Of a stretch of 64,000 nt of DNA, positions 37,359 to 49,732 are shown in pieces (within the stretch, counting starts at the first letter, position 1; the number at the start of each line of letters is the position of its first letter). Under the pieces are notes generated by a model, which was not told the DNA's origin, made no database searches, and saw only the letters and a list, made by a program, of their open reading frames with translations. A program made the position numbers and the translations under genes. Origin of the DNA: Escherichia coli (GTDB taxonomy: Bacteria > Pseudomonadota > Gammaproteobacteria > Enterobacterales > Enterobacteriaceae); NCBI RefSeq assembly GCF_003334305.1, contig NZ_QOWS01000005.1; one strand, written 5' to 3'.

Positions 37359-38351
37359 TTATGGCAATGGGTTATTGGCCCGACGCGCCAGCCACTCTTT
37401 AATTTGCTGGCGATGCAGGCTAACGGAACGACCTACGACAACGACGATAAGTAGCGCACCGGAAAGGGCGCTGGACACCTGATTTGGCACTCCTGCCATT
37501 TGCAAACCTTGTTGCAAATATCCCACTAATAAAACCGCAATGGCGGTGCCGATAATGGAACCGGAACCACCATAAATATTGGCCCCGCCAAGCACCACGG
37601 CGGTGATGGCGGGCATCAGAAACGACGCACCGAGATCGGAACGTGCTGAACCAAAATACGATACCAGCAGCACAGCGGCGACCGCAGACGCCAGCCCCGT
37701 CATGGCATAGAGCGCACATAAGGTGCGGTTAACTGGAATCGCGCTATAAAGCGCCACGCGCGGGCTTTGCCCAATCAAAAACACATTACGTCCGGCATGG
37801 GTTTTATGCAGCCAGAGCCAGAAAACGAGGAGACATATCAGGAAGATAATCAGCGGAACGGGGAGTCCCAGCACATCCAGGTTAGCGAAATCTGTAAACG
37901 CCATCGGGAATCCACCAATACCTTCGTACCTCGTCGCTCCGGCCATACCGGAAAGCAGCAGAGCGCTTCCGGCAAACAGATACAGCGTGCCAAGCGTAAT
38001 CACCAGCGGGTTAACTTTGGTATAGATAATTAATCCGGCGTTGATCAGCCCGCACAATGCGCCGAGCAGTAAGGTCAGGAGTATCGCCAGCGGCATCGGC
38101 ACACCACTTTGAAACAGTACGCCCAATGCAATGGCGCAGAGGCCGATGGTCGAACCAAACGAAATATCGATCCCGCCACTGACAATCACCATCGTCAGCG
38201 GTAGGGCGACAATGCCAATGCAGATAAAGTCACTGGTGCTGAACAGCAACATATTGAGATCTAACATTCGCGGGTTAATTGCACCAAATGCGACAATCTC
38301 AATAACGAGCAGTGCGGCAAGAGCCAGTTCCCAACCGTAGCGAATACGCAT
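37359..38351 (-). CDS. lsrD: AI-2 ABC transporter permease LsrD (330 aa)
   Basis: ORF 37359..38351; start overlaps lsrC stop. Confidence 0.9.
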
Positions 38352-39379
38352 TATGCGGCCTCCCGTTTTTTACCTGACGAAGCGGGTTTAACGGATGGCG
38401 GTGGCGTCATAAAGCGGGCATATTTTTGCCGCCGTAGATTACGTTCCAGCGCACAACGCAGGCGTCCATCAAACACCAGCACCGCCAGCAGCACGAGGCC
38501 CGCGATAAAATCGTTCCACCATGCCGGAATGCGCAACAGCACCAGTACGCTATCGATCTGCGTCAGGAACCATGCGCCGAGTACCGCACCGATGATCGCA
38601 CCGGAACCGCCGAGCAAACTAATGCCGCCCAGCACGCAGGCTGCAATTGCTTTCATCTCCAGCCCGGTACCGGTCTGGTTGGGGATAAAACCAATCTGCG
38701 AAGCAAACACAATTCCCGCCAGTGCCGCCATGCAGCCGTTCAACGAAAATGCCACAATGCGAATGGCTTCCGTACGAACACCCAGTTGACGAGCGCCCTG
38801 TAAATTATCGCCCGTGGCATAAAAACTGCGTCCAAACGCCGTCTTTGCCAGCAGCCAGGCCATAAATGCCACCAGAATTATCGTCAACCAACCAATCGCG
38901 GAAACGCCAAACAGCAGCGGTGCGGAGAGCTGTTTCAGTTCGGCGGGTAACCCTTCAATCCATTTACCGCCAGTCCACAGCAACATGATGCCTCTGTACA
39001 ACCCTAACGTGCCAAGGGTGGCAACAATGGCAGGGATCTTTAGCCACGCGACCAGGACACCGTTGAAAAATCCCGCGAGCAAACCAAGCAGTAAAGTCGC
39101 GACACAAGCAACAGGTAGTGAATACCCCGCGTTCAGTAACATCCCCAACAGCACTGCGCACATTCCGGTAATCGAACCCACTGAAACATCAATATTGCGC
39201 GTAAGCATTACCAGCGTCGCGCCCATTGCCAGCAGGATCAGGATTTGCGCGCTGCTATAAACCATGGTCAGCGTTTGCACACTTAAATACTGGCGGTCGA
39301 GAAAACCGGGTAATGCAAACAGCAGCACCACCGCCAGCAGTGCCGTGATTTCACGGTTGTTCTGAATAAACTTCAGCAT
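38351..39379 (-). CDS. lsrC: AI-2 ABC transporter permease LsrC (342 aa)
   Basis: ORF 38351..39379; overlaps lsrA 3' end by 7 nt. Confidence 0.9.
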
Positions 39380-40908
39380 GACACCTCCTGACGCTGACTA
39401 TCGCCGAAGGCAACGCGCATAATAGTCTCGACATTAATATCGCGCCCGGTCAGTGCAGAGTGGGCAATTTCGCCCTGATGCATCACATACACGCGATCTG
39501 CCATCAGTTCGATCTCTTCCAGATCGGAGGAGATAAGCAGCACTGCCACATTTTGTGCGGCGATGCTGCGCAACAGCTGGTAGATATCATTACGGGCCGA
39601 GACATCCACGCCGCGCGTCGGCTCATCGACAATCAATGCTTGCGGCGAAGCTTCCAGGCATTTGGCAATGAGGATTTTTTGCTGGTTGCCACCGGATAAT
39701 GTCCGTGCAGCTTGTTCCGGTTGGTTAAATTTAATATTCAGCGCCCGACGATAACGTTCCAGGGTGGCATTATCTTTCGCGGTTTTCGCCCAGAATCCAC
39801 GAAGGTTATGAGTAAGGGCGCAGACGTTCCAGGCAAGCGAAGCATCGAGATTCAGTCCGGATGACTGGCGATCTTCCGGCAGATAAACCAGACCGCGCAG
39901 TAAACGTTCTCCAGTGGATAATTTATTGATCTCTTTACCATTCAGCATAATGCATCCGCCACGCAAAGTACGCAGACCATAGAGCGTCTCGGCCAGTTCT
40001 GTGCGTCCGGCCCCCACCAGCCCAGCCAGGCCCAGAATTTCTCCGGCATTGAGCGTCATGCTGACATTCCTGAAACCTTCGCCGGTCAGATTTTCCAGTG
40101 TCAGCACCGGCGTTCCGGCAGCATGTTGTGGGCGGTTACCAGGTAACTCCAGCCATAATTTTTGGCTGGCAGAGAGCGATTTTTCCCGTACCACTGGCGT
40201 GATGGCCTGAATAATGTCGTCGGTAGACAGTTCGCTGGTTTTGCCGCTTAAGGCGATGGTTCCGTCGCGCATCACGCTAATTCGATCGGCAATCTGGCGA
40301 ATTTCCGGCAGCTTATGCGAGATAAAAACAATACCCACGCCAGTAGCAAGCAGCTCTTGCAAGCGAGTAAACAAGCGTTCGGTTTCCGCAGGGGTAAGCG
40401 AGGCGGTAGGTTCATCGAGGATCAGAATCCGCGAGTCGCGCATTAGCCCGCGGAGGATTTCCACCATTTGGCGATCGGCGACATCCAGCGATCCTGCCAG
40501 ACTATGCAGATCAAACTGGCAGCCCAGCGCCGCCAGCAAGTTCTTCATTTTTTGCATGGAGAGCTGTTTTTTTGCCATCCCAAACAGGATGTTTTCTTTT
40601 ATCGACAGGCTTGGGAAAAGCAGCGGTTCCTGGGGAACGAGATAAATGCCCAGCTGATGAGCATGAACTGGCGTTAATCTGGCGTAGTTGTTGCCCCCAA
40701 TCTCCAGCGTACCGCTATCAGCAGGGGTAATACCGGCAATAATCTTCATTAACGTCGATTTACCGGCACCATTGCCGCCGAGCAGGGCGTGGACCTCCCC
40801 CTGATGCAACGTAAAATCGATGCCTTTCAGGACATTGACCCCTGAATACTGTTTATAAACCGAGCGGGCGCAAAGTAGCGGTAACGCGCGGGTATCACTC
40901 GTTTGCAT
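39373..40908 (-). CDS. lsrA: AI-2 ABC transporter ATP-binding protein LsrA (tandem ABC domains, 511 aa)
   Basis: ORF 39373..40908; two Walker A motifs (GGNGAGKST and GLVGAGRT). Confidence 0.9.
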
Positions 40909-41156
40909 ATTTCCCCCGTTCAGTTTTGCAGGTGAGTTTTGAACAAATGTATTTCTGCTTTTAATTTGTTCATAACCTTAGGTGGACATTGCACATATTT
41001 CCGACGAATAGATCACAATTTATGCTATTTTGATTTTCACGGTTGCGTTTGTTCATGCTCGTAGAGTCAAACTGTGGCTGCCATCACAGATATAAATGCG
41101 CAAGAACTGAACAATTGCATTAAAGATTTAAATATGTTCAAAGTGAAGAATGAATT
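40909..41156. promoter_or_regulatory. Divergent lsrA / lsrR promoter-operator region
   Basis: 248-bp AT-rich intergenic spacer between divergent lsrACDBFG and lsrRK; this region is known to carry LsrR operators and a CRP site, but individual sites were not resolved here. Confidence 0.55.
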
Positions 41157-42110
41157 ATGACAATCAACGATTCGGCAATTTCAGAACAGGGAATGTGTGA
41201 AGAAGAACAGGTCGCGCGGATCGCGTGGTTTTACTATCACGACGGGCTGACCCAGAGCGAGATCAGCGATCGTCTCGGCCTGACCCGTTTGAAAGTGTCG
41301 CGCTTGCTGGAGAAAGGGCATCAGTCCGGCATTATTCGCGTACAGATTAATTCTCGCTTTGAAGGCTGTCTGGAATATGAAACTCAATTACGTCGTCAGT
41401 TTTCGCTGCAACATGTCCGGGTGATCCCTGGGCTTGCGGATGCTGATGTCGGCGGGCGACTGGGGATAGGCGCGGCGCATATGTTGATGAGTTTACTTCA
41501 ACCACAACAGATGCTGGCGATTGGTTTTGGCGAGGCAACCATGAATACGCTGCAACGCTTAAGTGGTTTTATTTCGTCACAGCAAATTCGCCTGGTCACG
41601 CTCTCCGGTGGCGTCGGTTCTTATATGACGGGTATCGGGCAGCTTAACGCGGCGTGCAGTGTGAATATTATTCCGGCTCCGTTGCGGGCATCCTCCGCTG
41701 ACATTGCCCGTACGCTAAAAAATGAAAATTGCGTCAAAGATGTTCTGTTAGCCGCGCAAGCAGCCGATGTGGCGATTGTCGGCATTGGGGCCGTCAGTCA
41801 ACAGGACGACGCGACGATCATTCGCTCCGGTTATATCAGCCAGGGCGAACAGTTAATGATTGGTCGAAAAGGGGCGGTTGGCGACATTTTAGGCTACTTT
41901 TTTGATGCAAAAGGTGACGTTGTCACGGATATTAAAATACATAACGAACTGATTGGCTTACCTTTAAGCTCGCTGAAGACCATACCCGTCCGGGTTGGCG
42001 TGGCAGGGGGAGAAAATAAAGCCGAAGCAATTGCCGCTGCAATGAAAGGCGGTTATATCAACGCACTGGTTACCGATCAGGACACAGCAGCGGCGATTTT
42101 ACGTAGTTAA
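41157..42110 (+). CDS. lsrR: SorC-family repressor LsrR (317 aa)
   Basis: ORF 41157..42110. Confidence 0.9.
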
Positions 42111-42188
42111 ATTTGCATGACCTTATTACCGGGAATGATGGAGAACGTATAGAGGAACAGACAGAACGCATAAGCCGAGGATAATCTA

Positions 42189-43781
42189 ATGGCTCGACTC
42201 TTTACCCCTTCAGAATCAAAGTATTACCTGATGGCGCTGGATGCAGGTACCGGAAGTATTCGGGCTGTGATATTCGACCTGGAAGGCAATCAAATAGCAG
42301 TGGGACAGGCGGAGTGGCGGCACCTGGCAGTACCGGACGTTCCTGGTTCTATGGAATTTGATCTCAACAAAAACTGGCAACTGGCGTGTGAGTGTATGCG
42401 CCAGGCGCTGCACAACGCCGGCATAGCCCCGGAGTATATCGCTGCCGTTTCGGCATGTTCGATGCGTGAAGGCATTGTTTTATATAATAATGAAGGAGCC
42501 CCGATCTGGGCCTGCGCCAATGTGGATGCCAGAGCGGCACGCGAAGTTAGCGAACTTAAAGAACTGCACAACAATACCTTTGAAAACGAAGTTTATCGCG
42601 CGACCGGACAAACACTGGCTTTAAGTGCCATCCCCAGATTACTTTGGCTGGCGCACCATCGTTCCGATATTTACCGTCAGGCATCAACCATCACCATGAT
42701 CAGCGACTGGCTGGCCTATATGCTCAGCGGCGAACTGGCGGTGGATCCCTCTAACGCTGGCACCACGGGACTTCTTGATCTAACCACCCGTGACTGGAAA
42801 CCTGCATTGCTGGATATGGCTGGCCTGCGTGCCGATATTCTTTCTCCTGTCAAAGAAACCGGCACATTGCTGGGCGTGGTAAGTTCACAAGCGGCGGAAC
42901 TCTGCGGTCTGAAGGCGGGCACTCCGGTGGTCGTTGGAGGAGGCGACGTGCAGCTTGGTTGCCTTGGGTTAGGCGTTGTGCGTCCGGCACAAACCGCGGT
43001 TCTTGGCGGCACATTCTGGCAGCAAGTTGTAAATTTAGCCGCGCCGGTGACAGACCCAGAAATGAACGTGCGCGTTAATCCTCATGTTATTCCTGGCATG
43101 GTACAAGCTGAATCTATAAGCTTTTTTACCGGACTCACCATGCGCTGGTTCCGCGATGCTTTCTGTGCCGAAGAAAAACTGATTGCCGAACGTTTAGGCA
43201 TCGACACCTATACGCTGCTGGAAGAGATGGCCAGTCGGGTGCCGCCTGGGTCGTGGGGCGTAATGCCGATCTTCTCCGACAGAATGCGCTTTAAAACCTG
43301 GTATCACGCTGCGCCTTCCTTTATTAACTTGTCCATTGAGCCGGATAAATGTAACAAAGCGACATTGTTCCGTGCGCTGGAAGAAAATGCGGCGATTGTA
43401 TCAGCGTGTAACTTGCAGCAAATTGCTGATTTCTCGAATATTCATCCTTCATCGTTAGTCTTTGCAGGCGGAGGTTCAAAAGGGAAATTATGGAGTCAAA
43501 TTCTCGCTGATGTCTCGGGATTACCCGTCAATATTCCGGTGGTCAAAGAAGCCACTGCATTAGGATGTGCCATTGCAGCTGGCGTCGGTGCCGGAATTTT
43601 TTCATCAATGGCAGAAACCGGAGAACGCCTGGTTCGCTGGGAACGGACGCACACACCAGACCCGGAAAAGCATGAACTTTATCAGGATTCACGCGATAAG
43701 TGGCAGGCAGTTTATCAGGATCAGCTGGGGCTGGTTGATCATGGACTGACGACGTCGTTATGGAAAGCGCCTGGGTTATAG
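42189..43781 (+). CDS. lsrK: Autoinducer-2 kinase LsrK (FGGY carbohydrate kinase, 530 aa)
   Basis: ORF 42189..43781. Confidence 0.9.
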
Positions 43782-43789
43782 TTTCATTG

Positions 43790-43826
43790 ACAGCCACATC
43801 ATGATGACCGTGGCTGTTAGTTTTTG
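43790..43826 (+). terminator. Rho-independent terminator of lsrK
   Basis: ACAGCCAC-atcatgatgacc-GTGGCTGT followed by TAGTTTTTG. Confidence 0.55.
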
Positions 43827-44311
43827 AGTATAGTTATTCTTATTTCCCTTCTTTTAGAGCTGGCTTGTTAAAAGCCAGCTTGCAGATTCATCGTTCCATC
43901 ACCAGTACTATATTCAAGGGAAAATTGCTATTTTTCTTAAAGCATTAAGCACAACCCTTATTTTATAGCGAATATTCCTAAAGACACTAATGGATGCAAA
44001 AGGGGTTTAATAAACTTCGATTTTTAGCAATTAGTGCTATTCTTTGTTAAATATGATGATGATAATTTTCCTATTGAAAGAAACAGTTTTCTTATTAATC
44101 AACAATAACTCATAGTTCATTTTTAAATAAAATAAGAACTATGCATTTTTTAATCTATCAATTCGAAAGTATTAGCAAATTAGCCAAATTGACACCTTCC
44201 CACCTCCAACTAACACTCAATACAGACCTCTGACAATTTAATAAGTTTCATTTTTAATGTCTGACGACTCATCTCTTTCGTGGCTGTATTGTTTGTATAT
44301 GGAGCGTTTAT

Positions 44312-47300
44312 ATGAATAGAATCTATCGCGTGATATGGAATTGCACTCTACAGGTATTTCAGGCCTGCTCGGAATTAACTCGCAGGGCAGGTAAAACATC
44401 GACGGTTAATTTGCGTAAATCCTCTGGACTGACAACGAAATTCAGTAGATTGACGCTGGGTGTTTTGCTGGCACTAAGCGGTTCAGCGTCTGGTGCAAGT
44501 CTGGAAGTTGATAATGATCAGATTACCAATATTGATACTGATGTTGCTTATGATGCCTACCTGGTTGGCTGGTATGGCACTGGAGTGCTTAATATTTTGG
44601 CTGGCGGTAATGCCTCCTTAACCACTATTACTACCAGCGTCATTGGCGCTAATGAGGACTCAGAGGGCACCGTTAATGTTTTGGGTGGCACCTGGCGATT
44701 GTATGATAGCGGAAATAATGCAAGGCCTTTAAATGTGGGTCAATCCGGAACGGGGACGCTGAATATTAAACAGAAAGGTCACGTTGATGGAGGCTATTTA
44801 AGACTAGGTTCCTCGACAGGAGGCGTCGGGACGGTCAATGTTGAGGGAGAGGACTCTGTTCTGACGACCGAATTATTCGAAATAGGGAGTTACGGTACGG
44901 GATCATTAAATATTACGGATAAGGGTTACGTCACGAGTTCAATAGTCGCCATTTTAGGCTATCAGGCGGGCAGTAATGGCCAGGTTGTCGTTGAAAAGGG
45001 CGGTGAGTGGCTAATAAAAAATAACGATTCCTCAATTGAATTTCAAATTGGTAATCAAGGAACTGGGGAAGCGACTATTCGCGAGGGTGGACTGATTACG
45101 GCTGAAAACACGATTATCGGTGGCAATGCTACCGGTATCGGAACCCTGAATGTGCAGGATCAAGACTCTGTCATCACGGTACGCAGACTCTATAATGGAT
45201 ATTTCGGTAATGGCACACTCAATATTTCCAATAATGGACTAATTAATAACAAAGAATATTCATTAGTGGGCGTTCAGGACGGTTCCCACGGTGTCGTCAA
45301 CGTGACCGATAAAGGGCATTGGAATTTCCTCGGAACGGGCGAAGCTTTCCGCTATATCTATATCGGTGATGCTGGCGACGGTGAACTTAATGTCTCGCGT
45401 GAAGGTAAAGTAGATTCGGGAATTATCACTGCGGGGATGAAAGAAACAGGCACAGGCAACATTACTGTTAAGGATAAGAACTCCGTTATCACTAATCTCG
45501 GAACTAATCTTGGTTATGACGGCCACGGCGAAATGAATATCAGTAATGAAGGGCTTGTTGTCAGCAACGGAGGAAGCTCACTCGGTTATGGAGAAACCGG
45601 CGTCGGGAATGTCAGCATCACCACGGGGGGGATGTGGGAGGTCAATAAGAATGTCTATACCACCATTGGTGTTGCGGGCGTCGGAAACCTCAATATTAGC
45701 GATGGCGGTAAGTTCGTATCGCAAAATATTACTTTTTTGGGCGATAAAGCAAGCGGTATCGGCACACTGAACCTGATGGATGCGACATCATCGTTCGATA
45801 CTGTGGGTATCAATGTCGGTAATTTTGGTAGCGGTATCGTAAATGTCAGTAATGGTGCCACCCTTAATTCAACGGGCTATGGATTTATCGGAGGAAATGC
45901 CTCCGGTAAGGGGATAGTTAATATTTCAACGGACAGTCTCTGGAATTTAAAGACATCATCTACTAACGCACAATTGCTACAGGTCGGTGTATTAGGCAAG
46001 GGTGAACTGAATATTACCACCGGAGGTATAGTTAAAGCGCGTGATACACAGATAGCTCTCAATGACAAAAGTAAGGGCGACGTGAGGGTGGATGGGCAGA
46101 ACTCTCTTCTTGAAACATTCAATATGTACGTAGGGACATCTGGTACGGGTACGTTAACCCTGACGAATAGCGGCACGCTGAATGTCGAAGGTGGAGAAGT
46201 TTACTTAGGTGTTTTTGAACCTGCTGTAGGAACGCTAAACATTGGTGCAGCTCACGGTGAGGCGGCGGCAGATGCCGGGTATATAACCAACGCGACGAAA
46301 GTAGAGTTTGGTTCTGGCGAAGGTGTTTTTGTCTTTAATCATACTAATAACAGTGATGCCGGCTACCAGGTCGATATGCTGATTACAGGTGACGATAAAG
46401 ACGGAAAAGTGATCCATGATGCAGGCCATACGGTGTTCAATGCAGGGAATACTTATAGCGGTAAAACGCTGGTCAATGACGGCCTCCTGACCATTGCGTC
46501 TCATACGGCAGATGGGGTAACGGGCATGGGTTCGAGTGAAGTCACCATTGCAAGCCCCGGTACGCTCGACATTCTCGCATCAACGAACAGTGCAGGAGAT
46601 TACACGCTGACCAATGCGCTCAAAGGCGATGGCTTGATGCGAGTGCAGCTGTCATCCTACGACAAGATGTTTGGCTTTACCCATGCAACAGGGACTGAAT
46701 TCGCCGGTGTTGCCCAACTGAAAGACAGTACCTTCACTCTGGAACGCGACAACACCGCTGCGCTTACTCACGCGATGTTGCAGTCTGACAGTGAAAATAC
46801 CACATCGGTAAAAGTGGGAGAGCAATCCATTGGTGGACTGGCCATGAATGGCGGTACGCTCATTTTCGATACGGATATTCCTGCTGCGACGCTTGCAGAG
46901 GGATATATCAGCGTCGATACGCTGGTTGTCGGCGCGGGTGACTACACCTGGAAAGGCCGTAACTATCAGGTAAACGGGACGGGCGACGTGCTTATCGACG
47001 TGCCTAAACCGTGGAATGATCCCATGGCGAATAACCCTCTGACGACGCTCAATTTGCTGGAACACGACGATAGCCATGTCGGCGTTCAACTGGTGAAGGC
47101 GCAAACGGTTATTGGGTCGGGTGGCTCATTAACGTTACGTGATTTACAGGGCGACGAGGTGGAAGCGGACAAAACGTTACACATTGCGCAAAACGGAACG
47201 GTGGTCGCCGAGGGTGATTATGGATTCCGCCTCACGACCGCACCAGGTGATGGTTTGTACGTTAACTATGGGCTGAAAGCGCTGAACATCCATGGTGGGC

Positions 47301-49732: not shown

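Follow-up and report, generated by a model that had tools for sequence, protein, structure and literature searches.

The 64,000-nucleotide stretch of E. coli DNA analyzed here, referred to below as the window, carries at 44312..49732 (+) what is very probably an intact, chromosomal, classical (type Va) autotransporter gene of the ECSE_1600 family, the functional orthologue of the K-12 pseudogene yneO (ydeK/ydeU). As the first-pass annotation had proposed, a single ORF runs without interruption for 1806 aa plus a stop codon, and it begins with an ATG that has a GGAG Shine-Dalgarno sequence 8 nt upstream. The protein scored 4188.7 bits against the NCBIfam model NF011422 ("ECSE_1600 family autotransporter", a name taken from ECSE_1600 of E. 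coli SE11; cut-off 2335), with coverage of positions 1-1806 of 1806, and the identical sequence carries the same family name in RefSeq under the multispecies record WP_001349923.1. Exactly the same protein was found on at least 1000 public contigs, and the gene was 100% identical in a second complete genome, that of strain A7; the intact sequence is therefore not a sequencing artefact.

The neighbors of the gene were confirmed as LsrR, LsrK, HipB, and HipA, and the order lsrR-lsrK-[autotransporter]-hipB-hipA is the same in K-12 and in strain A7. A mobile or plasmid origin was rejected, the sole "plasmid" matches being mislabelled chromosomes of 4.8-4.9 Mb. The CDS of K-12 MG1655 at this position is flagged as frameshifted, in keeping with the ydeK/ydeU pseudogene that had been placed there. 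This K-12 gene (b1509/b1510) shares with the window copy the locus between lsrK and hipB, the 1806/1806 length model, and 98.9% DNA identity, and differs from it by 60 SNPs and one extra G in a G7 run (48266-48272). Because of that single G, the K-12 frame stops at codon 1326, and the ORF falls into two parts, YdeK (1325 aa), which has only the passenger, and YdeU, which has the autochaperone and barrel; the window copy is unsplit. K-12 thus carries a frameshifted copy rather than an identical intact gene, and the claimed difference between the strains stands. The finding is already known: the protein has a RefSeq record, its family has a curated model, and the contrast between a whole gene in commensals, a split one in K-12, and none in B2 strains was described in 2008. 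The SE11 genome paper of that year (PMC2608844) records ECSE_1600 (1806 aa) as whole in SE11 and HS and as disrupted in MG1655, E24377A, and Sakai, with no copy in B2 strains.

All modules that type Va secretion requires are present: a Sec signal peptide with an ESPR, a predicted beta-helical passenger with an autochaperone, and a barrel translocator. The extended signal peptide (44312..44497, +), recognized correctly in the initial reading, comprises an ESPR at aa 1-47 (Pfam PF13018, E 1.4e-14), the hydrophobic core that follows it, and an A-x-A-like end, which would place cleavage near aa 62. The N-terminal passenger repeat region (aa 89-640; 44576..46231, +), supported by periodicity, AlphaFold, and Foldseek, is characterized by the T5SS/PEP-CTERM-associated repeat TIGR04393, which NCBIfam matched to nine stretches. 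The central passenger (aa 641-1331; 46232..48304, +) has weak PATR/beta-strand repeats, with a best PATR E-value of 4.8e-5 and an additional match to TIGR02601; the IcsA passenger fragment 5KE1 aligns to aa 1195-1457. The autochaperone domain (aa 1332-1438; 48305..48625, +) overlaps a Pertactin family match, with PF18883 AC_1 (E 3.4e-26) and PF03212 Pertactin (E 1.6e-10) both falling within aa 1332-1452, and was also matched by the IcsA autochaperone 3ML3. A proline-rich junction and a predicted alpha-helical linker follow (aa 1439-1524; 48626..48883, +; containing TPADTPDPINNPPVVDPEGPSVYRPEAGSY); by homology with AIDA-I, to whose structure 4MEE they were aligned, this segment would plug the barrel lumen. 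The C-terminal beta-barrel translocator, likewise anticipated from the ORF, occupies aa 1525-1806 (48884..49729, +) and was identified by PF03797 (aa 1525-1784, E 2.9e-42), by TIGR01414 (406.6 bits), and by the AIDA-I beta-domain 4MEE, which aligns to aa 1345-1806 (E 5.9e-87).

The passenger had been described as a long array of 19-20-aa G-x-G-x-L-N-[IV] repeats. The repeats themselves are present, with 16 occurrences of G-x-G-x-[LVI]-[NT]-[IVL] versus 0.34 expected from shuffles, but they are limited to aa 89-617, the N-terminal third, rather than extending through the whole passenger, and the proposed period did not withstand analysis. The motifs are spaced by 24-26 aa or multiples thereof, and autocorrelation was strongest at 104-105 aa (z 6.0), with a further peak at 26 aa (z 3.4) and a z of just 0.2 at 19-20 aa; the actual periods are close to 26 and 105 aa. 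AlphaFold modelled aa 59-700 as all-beta, with a pLDDT of 90.9 and a pTM of 0.90. When searched by Foldseek, the model returned as the top eight PDB matches structures of Ag43 (7KOH, 4KH3, and 7KO9 among them) and TibA (4Q1Q), with E-values of 8.5e-7 to 8.8e-5 and a probability of 1.0, though with TM-scores of just 0.21-0.56, those for Ag43 being low at 0.27-0.38. The N-terminal passenger is thus predicted with high confidence to form an Ag43/TibA-like right-handed beta-helix; given the low TM-scores, the match establishes the fold class and not a shared function.

A further suggestion, that recombination between the internal repeats would readily alter the length of the gene, was contradicted at the DNA level. 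The protein repeats are degenerate in the DNA: TRF found no tandem arrays in the gene, and no usable direct repeats were present, the longest being 47 nt at 70% identity. Gene length was 5421 nt, give or take a few, in nearly all full-length matches. A survey of the protein database recovered 86 distinct variants with in-frame internal deletions (92-363 aa), whose junctions had next to no microhomology, at 3.2 nt compared to 2.4 nt in random controls; two junctions checked in DNA had 6 nt and 0 nt. In-frame internal deletions are therefore real but rare, and they are not repeat-mediated.

The "AIDA-type" label was correct for the translocator (4MEE, E 6e-87) and for the broad AIDA-I-type class, and failed for AIDA-I in the narrower sense. 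AIDA-I (adhesin involved in diffuse adherence) and the window protein have homologous autochaperone, linker, and beta-barrel segments (aa 1345-1806) and share a type Va layout with a beta-helical passenger. Against the curated AIDA-I model NF033176, however, the window protein scored 338.3 bits where the cut-off is 1200, and only aa 1071-1805 aligned. The AIDA-I passenger consists of imperfect repeats of about 19 aa, a period at which the window protein gave no appreciable autocorrelation, and Pfam detected no AIDA repeat family in the window protein. AIDA-I is also plasmid-borne and adjacent to a heptosyltransferase gene (aah/tibC-like), whereas the window gene is chromosomal and flanked by lsrK and hipB, with no such glycosyltransferase neighbor.

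Among solved structures, the modelled N-terminal passenger, a three-faced right-handed beta-helix, is matched best by the self-associating autotransporters Ag43 (Flu) and TibA, whose genes, like the window gene, encode E. coli surface proteins that vary between ON and OFF. Their sequence identity to the window protein is nonetheless 14-16%, and their rungs are 19-20 aa, in contrast to the rungs of about 26 aa with a 105-aa super-repeat seen here. Salmonella MisL and ShdA and E. coli YfaL (EhaC) have related C-terminal translocation units, with the MisL model scoring 467 bits over aa 1480-1806, ShdA 210 bits, and YfaL 196 bits; all of these scores fall far short of the equivalog cut-offs, and the passengers show no sequence relationship.

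The gene is widespread: 4364 of 5426 complete E. coli genomes matched it, and nearly all of the matches were chromosomal. When the window allele was compared to three other intact alleles, up to 3% divergent, a dN/dS of 0.13 was obtained. Intact alleles are under purifying selection, which makes a functional surface protein a reasonable prediction. Null alleles are nevertheless so frequent that the protein must be dispensable in many lineages.

The prediction of a functional surface protein may need qualification where transcription is concerned. The intergenic region between lsrK and the autotransporter gene (43782..44311, +), examined by sequence and motif scan and presumed to contain the promoter and regulatory sites, is 530 bp long at 31.7% GC and has 5 SNPs relative to K-12. 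A promoter scan found no strong sigma-70 consensus in it, and together with the AT-richness this suggests that many conditions may leave the gene silenced. Within the gene itself, the first third is 45.9% GC, as against 52-53% for the remainder, and many E. coli AIDA-I-type autotransporters are repressed by H-NS. The ORF could then be intact but transcriptionally silent in the source strain in most conditions, for instance when bound by H-NS, and would confer no surface phenotype unless derepressed. We regard this as a possibility worth keeping in mind, though a tentative one. A dN/dS of 0.13 among intact alleles implies expression and selection of the protein at some point in the life cycle. 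A gene that is silent in the laboratory could still function in the host, so that silencing is less a replacement for the main explanation than a qualification of it. The sole reported regulatory signal is an RpoS-holoenzyme site between lsrK and ydeK, identified in vitro by genomic SELEX in K-12 (PMC5493296).

An Ag43-like phase switch governed by Dam and OxyR was ruled out, the 530-bp upstream region containing no GATC site. With no GATC or OxyR-type sites upstream, any ON/OFF variation would arise from poly-G slippage and not from Dam/OxyR. Downstream, two terminator-like hairpins, recognized by consensus matches only, lie 3' of the stop codon between the gene and the hipBA promoter (49742..49799, +); one is GCCGCATG-N9-CATGCGGC, and the scan placed the other at 49786-49799. 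No RNA element was found at the locus with Rfam.

Comparison of strains, together with a listing of homopolymer tracts, revealed three poly-G runs within the gene. The first, G7a (gene nt 1314-1320; 45625..45631, +), forms the Gly-Gly codons GGG GGG, and its slippage by -1 yields a 485-aa product; G6 is found here in strains 1368KP and PapM-36-2 and in 31 complete genomes, and 485-aa products occurred on 867 and 97 contigs. The second, G8 (gene nt 3831-3838; 48142..48149, +), on slipping by +1 or -1 yields products of 1289 or 1302 aa that end before the autochaperone and barrel; it is G7 in O121, O55:H7, strain 165, and ETEC4088, and G9 in A28 and WF5-5-T2. The third, G7b (gene nt 3955-3961; 48266..48272, +), is the site of the K-12 frameshift and is G8 in that strain. 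Every +1 or -1 change at these tracts leads to a premature stop.

The frequency of such changes was estimated in complete genomes using exact probes of 70-73 nt, one for each tract length, so that the counts refer to genomes with identical flanks. An earlier 87-nt probe around G7b had given ambiguous counts because of SNPs in the flanks and was replaced by the exact probes. At the G8 tract, 2370 genomes had the in-frame G8, 348 had G7, and 432 had G9; at G7b, the in-frame G7 was found in 1170, G8 in 389, and G6 in 41. The shortened products derived from the tracts were found repeatedly, each on between 5 and at least 1000 contigs. Twelve of the 15 small indel events examined lay in 22 nt of poly-G, and on the allele without any other SNP, five of six indels were at the three tracts, in both directions. 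The three runs are a modest new lead on the repeated inactivation of this gene. Other routes were also seen, namely IS insertions at different sites, nonsense mutation, an 8-bp duplication (O157/O55), and deletions, one of which has left a scar in some strains such that just the last 96 nt of the gene remain. In a long-term culture study, the yneO mutations were IS2 insertions and not tract changes.

The question arises whether these runs act as reversible ON/OFF switches within E. coli populations; the window would then show the ON phase, and OFF phases would be seen in K-12, O121, and many ST10-like strains. In E. coli, surface proteins that vary in phase through simple sequence repeats have classically been regarded as rare. 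All three G runs of at least 7 in the 64-kb window fall in this one gene, where shuffling of synonymous codons gave a mean of 0.57 such runs (P = 0.015). Changes of +1 and -1 were found at all three tracts on the allele without any other SNP, and the K-12 and WF5-5-T2 alleles are separated by two tract changes and 0 SNPs. The same change also appears on alleles 59-128 SNPs apart, as with G7b +1 in K-12 and FDAARGOS_403 and G8 -1 in O121 and O55:H7. About 25% of complete genomes with identical flanks have G7 or G9 at the G8 tract, and purifying selection persists on the intact alleles. Intragenic G tracts whose change in length shifts the frame, as in the window gene, are found in the poly-G/C-controlled autotransporters of Neisseria, Bordetella pertussis, and Chlamydia (Pmp). 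Those tracts, however, are usually longer and conserved as switches, whereas the runs here are 7-8 nt long and are not conserved between alleles. K-12-like alleles have GGGGGGA in place of G7a, O157 has G6A in place of G7b, and EC21 and Ch1, which are divergent yet intact, have a broken G8 run; in other alleles, intact ones included, interruptions of G7a, G7b, and G8 may be synonymous or nonsynonymous. Tracts of 7-8 nt are also short for high-frequency switching in mismatch-repair-proficient E. coli. Furthermore, OFF alleles are fixed across whole lineages (K-12, O121, and O157) and often carry second hits or stand alongside IS insertions and nonsense mutations, a pattern suggestive of one-way decay. 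Among the alleles compared, reversion was not demonstrated, and errors may account for some of the tract lengths called in long-read assemblies. Reversible switching is accordingly improbable in our estimation.

Another reading is that the gene is a functionless relic being lost everywhere and that the window copy has simply not yet been hit. Null alleles are indeed very common and arise by many routes (frameshift, IS, nonsense, 8-bp duplication, and deletion), and the gene is absent from B2 strains (PMC2608844). This reading is hard to reconcile with a dN/dS of 0.13 over alleles up to 3% divergent, with the retention of 1806-aa forms at 84-87% identity in more distant Escherichia/Enterobacteriaceae (P0055-P0063), or with two main full-length clusters of 18868 and 5726 distinct sequences, and we consider it very unlikely. 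Just as little credence attaches to the beta-helix being a scaffold for an enzymatic or toxic activity: beta-helical passengers of other autotransporters do carry proteases or esterases, and Hap, Hbp, and EspP rank further down among the fold matches, but SPATE-type matches are insignificant (E > 0.03), the best fold matches for aa 59-700 are the pure beta-helix adhesins Ag43 and TibA, and neither Pfam nor NCBIfam detected a catalytic domain anywhere in the 1806 aa.

The reading that we prefer is that of an intact gene whose product would be surface-displayed and is probably adhesin-like. The ESPR-type signal peptide would direct the protein through Sec, after which the C-terminal barrel, AIDA-I-like and 12-stranded, would be inserted into the outer membrane by BamA/TAM. 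The passenger of about 1270 residues would then be threaded out and, starting at the autochaperone domain, would fold into a long right-handed beta-helix like those of Ag43 and TibA, displayed at the cell surface. Judged from the fold class only, the protein most likely serves in adhesion or in cell-cell aggregation/biofilm formation in the gut. Our literature search returned no functional study of the ECSE_1600/YneO protein, the mentions found being confined to genome/omics tables and the SE11 genome paper. The gene in the source strain is ON-capable. Across the species, it is an ancestral chromosomal gene that is under purifying selection where intact, yet has been lost repeatedly. The main cause of loss is slippage by +1 or -1 at the three Gly-Gly-encoded poly-G runs (G7, G8, and G7), the K-12 lesion being one such event, with IS insertion, nonsense mutation, the 8-bp duplication of O157/O55, and deletions as further causes.

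These findings make K-12 a natural null for the ECSE_1600 surface protein, while strains like the source strain carry an additional, predicted Ag43-like beta-helix, with possible effects on aggregation, biofilm formation, and gut colonization. The poly-G tracts call for caution when pseudogenes are assigned at the yneO locus in long-read assemblies. At least about a quarter of the sequenced E. coli carrying the gene have it switched off via one-base slippage at the three G runs, and the locus is therefore a convenient natural system in which to ask whether E. coli varies a surface antigen by homopolymer slippage.

A single unbroken open reading frame of 1806 codons, with an ATG start and a GGAG Shine-Dalgarno motif 8 nt 5′ of it, occupies positions 44312..49732 on the + strand. 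An open frame of this length cannot have arisen by chance, and the question therefore became the identity of the gene. Its product matched the NCBIfam model NF011422 (ECSE_1600 family autotransporter) over 1-1806 of 1806 residues with 4188.7 bits, against a curated cut-off of 2335. The Pfam search placed an ESPR extended signal peptide at aa 1-47 (E 1.4e-14), an AC_1 autochaperone at aa 1332-1438 (E 3.4e-26, overlapping a Pertactin match), and an autotransporter beta-domain at aa 1525-1784 (E 2.9e-42), bearing out the uninterrupted frame, extended signal peptide, and C-terminal barrel of the first-pass annotation. Nine stretches of the N-terminal passenger matched the T5SS/PEP-CTERM-associated repeat TIGR04393, and no catalytic domain was detected by Pfam or NCBIfam anywhere in the 1806 residues. 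When compared with solved structures, aa 1345-1806 aligned with the AIDA-I beta-domain (4MEE, E 5.9e-87), and the region preceding this match aligned with autochaperone and passenger fragments of IcsA (3ML3 and 5KE1).

The passenger had 3540 distant homologues with E < 1e-3, and 281 with E < 1e-30, in a library of 1.8 billion proteins. Ten homologue segments aligned with aa 59-700 were used as AlphaFold input, and the resulting model (pLDDT 90.9, pTM 0.90) contained only short, evenly spaced strands. Its best PDB matches were the Ag43 passengers 7KOH, 4KH3, 7KO9, and 7KOB together with TibA (4Q1Q), each with a probability of 1.0, with modest TM-scores of 0.21-0.56 and 14-16% identity. On the basis of the modules, the solved-structure alignments, and the modeled fold with its PDB matches, the protein is a classical type Va autotransporter, complete in its parts, whose beta-helix is of the Ag43/TibA class. 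The description "AIDA-type" holds only for the translocator and as a loose classification; the curated AIDA-I model scored 338 bits, well short of the 1200 it requires, and covered only the C-terminal 40% of the protein, and no heptosyltransferase gene adjoined the autotransporter gene in the flanks examined. The G-x-G-x-L-N-[IV] motif reported at first pass is genuine, with 16 occurrences versus 0.34 in shuffled sequences, all within aa 89-617. The 19-20-aa AIDA-like period assigned to it is wrong, since the motifs are spaced by 24-26 aa or multiples thereof, and autocorrelation of aa 80-640 peaked at 104-105 aa (z 6.0) and 26 aa (z 3.4) with no signal at 19-20 aa (z 0.2). Apart from the repeat period, the initial observation was essentially correct, and its interpretation is partly supported.

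The intact gene was already known as a member of a curated family, since the SE11 genome paper of 2008 tabulated the 1806-aa ECSE_1600 with intact copies in SE11 and HS, disrupted copies in MG1655, E24377A, and O157 Sakai, and none in B2 strains (PMC2608844). The literature search turned up no study of its function under the gene's various names. The protein in the window is identical to RefSeq WP_001349923.1, present on at least 1000 contigs, and the gene is 100% identical in DNA to that of strain A7. A match was found in 4364 of 5426 complete E. coli genomes, with at least 80% of the gene covered in 3953; the apparent plasmid matches were mislabeled chromosomes. Compared pairwise with three other intact alleles, which are 0.9-3% divergent, the window allele gave a dN/dS of 0.13, and 1806-aa forms with 84-87% identity are kept in more distant Escherichia and Enterobacteriaceae, which together indicate that the product of the intact gene is probably expressed and selected. 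The 530-bp upstream region contains neither GATC sites nor a good sigma-70 consensus; one SELEX study listed an RpoS-holoenzyme site in this region of K-12 (PMC5493296). The GC content rises from 31.7% upstream (43782-44311) to 45.9% in the first third of the gene (44312-46111) and 52-53% in the remainder (46112-49732), a gradient that would fit both H-NS binding and a 5′ part that is mosaic or was acquired horizontally.

Neighboring genes were named from NCBIfam equivalog models and synteny with annotated genomes. On the 5′ side lie lsrA (- strand), then lsrR and lsrK, and on the 3′ side hipB (49941-50207) and hipA (50207-51529), both intact. Upstream of hipB, 49800-49945 contains four TATCC-N8-GGATA inverted repeats, already known as the operators bound by HipB. 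At approximately 51841-52049 (coordinates transferred from the compared locus L002), between hipA and the fimbrial genes, is a short, frameshifted helix-turn-helix pseudogene lacking its N-terminus, annotated in both K-12 and A7. A complete fim-like chaperone-usher operon follows at 52434-58843. Its genes specify the major subunit and the chaperone, an usher of 883 aa, subunits resembling FimF and FimG, and a putative tip adhesin of 304 aa that no NCBIfam model matched. K-12 retains only a truncated usher, ydeT, lacking its N-terminus, and ydeS onward. This operon is a second locus for a surface structure that is whole in the window and degraded in K-12. The sole Rfam match in the window was a full-length one to the Hfq-binding sRNA family STnc560 (RF01407, 281.9 bits) at 12704-12917.

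The split ydeK/ydeU fragments attributed to K-12 were confirmed by alignment. MG1655 carries at this position a CDS annotated as a frameshifted ECSE_1600 family autotransporter, which differs from the window by 60 SNPs and one extra G, the G7 run at 48266-48272 being G8 in K-12. The K-12 frame ends at codon 1326, directly before the autochaperone domain, in agreement with UniProt YdeK (1325 aa) and the synonyms ydeK/ydeU/b1509/b1510 for YneO. Judged from the intact K-12-like G7 allele of strain EH10-18-47, only 11 SNPs away, the K-12 lesion is recent.

The tract affected in K-12 is one of three poly-G runs, in each of which the codons GGG GGG specify Gly-Gly: G7a at 45625-45631 (gene nt 1314-1320), G8 at 48142-48149 (nt 3831-3838), and G7b at 48266-48272 (nt 3955-3961). 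No other run of G in the 64-kb window reaches 7 nt, and no run of C does; three such G runs exceed the mean of 0.57 in a synonymous-codon shuffle (P = 0.015). Among the frameshifted alleles fetched, G7b had gained one G in K-12 and FDAARGOS_403 (59 SNPs from K-12 in background) and lost one in ET791; G8 had lost one in O121, O55:H7, strain 165, and ETEC4088 and gained one in A28 and WF5-5-T2; and G7a had lost one in 1368KP and PapM-36-2. WF5-5-T2, otherwise 0 SNPs from K-12, carries an additional +1 at G7b. Only three indels in these alleles lay outside the tracts, namely an 8-bp duplication that O157:H7 shares with O55:H7, and two deletions of 1 nt, both within dinucleotide runs. One allele, 1 SNP from the window, occurs in six genomes that differ from each other by the indel alone; five of the six indels are in the tracts, in both directions. 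The tract frameshifts are not long-read artefacts; the exact truncated products recur on 5, 61, 97, 155, 433, 867, and at least 1000 contigs among NCBI, ENA, and SRA-derived assemblies.

A census of complete genomes with exact 70-73-nt probes found G8 in frame in 2370 and frameshifted to G7 in 348 and G9 in 432; G7b in frame in 1170 and frameshifted to G8 in 389 (inflated by laboratory K-12 derivatives) and G6 in 41; and G7a, for which the frameshifted length alone was counted, at G6 in 31. Off-frame lengths thus occur in hundreds of complete genomes, and natural isolates have repeatedly acquired +1 or -1 frameshifts at each tract. Among genome matches sampled at even intervals along their ranking, 19 of the 32 full-length ones had the in-frame length. 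Other routes of inactivation were IS insertions at different sites and orientations, a nonsense mutation in P276M, and deletions from lsrC through most of the gene. In NZ_CP128923.1, and in some strains, such a deletion (approximately window 38351-49636) runs from within lsrC through lsrA, lsrR, lsrK, and almost the entire autotransporter gene, leaving its last 96 nt beside hipB. BL21 keeps only the 3′ 29%.

That the internal repeats drive recombinational length variation, as the first-pass annotation proposed, was unsupported. TRF found no tandem array in the gene, no direct repeat in it exceeds 47 nt (70% identity), and full-length matches stay within a few bases of 5421 nt. The public proteins compared (P0003-P0120) included at least 86 distinct single deletions of 92-363 aa, all in frame and spread over the passenger; owing to the ranking of matches in the search, this survey could show in-frame events only. 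Such variants are rare and nearly all singletons, beside two clusters numbering 18868 and 5726 different full-length sequences, and the deletion junctions had no microhomology beyond chance (3.2 nt versus 2.4 nt in controls; the two junctions checked at the DNA level had 6 nt and 0 nt). One variant, a 1589-aa product lacking 217 aa, recurs on dozens of contigs.

We also considered whether the poly-G runs drive reversible phase variation of the autotransporter, which would accommodate tract changes in both directions and on SNP-free backgrounds and the purifying selection that persists on intact alleles. However, the tracts are short and lack conservation: G7a is G6A in K-12-like alleles, as is G7b in O157, and the intact EC21 and Ch1 alleles have an interrupted G8 run. 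Moreover, OFF states are fixed in entire lineages and gather second hits, and reversion was not among the events seen. The evidence against phase variation is stronger than that for it, and we regard it as unlikely. The slippage-prone poly-G runs are the sole new lead from this locus, and the well-supported reading is that they are mutational hot spots that repeatedly cost strains a surface protein which is dispensable yet under selection, with the pseudogene of K-12 as one instance of that loss.
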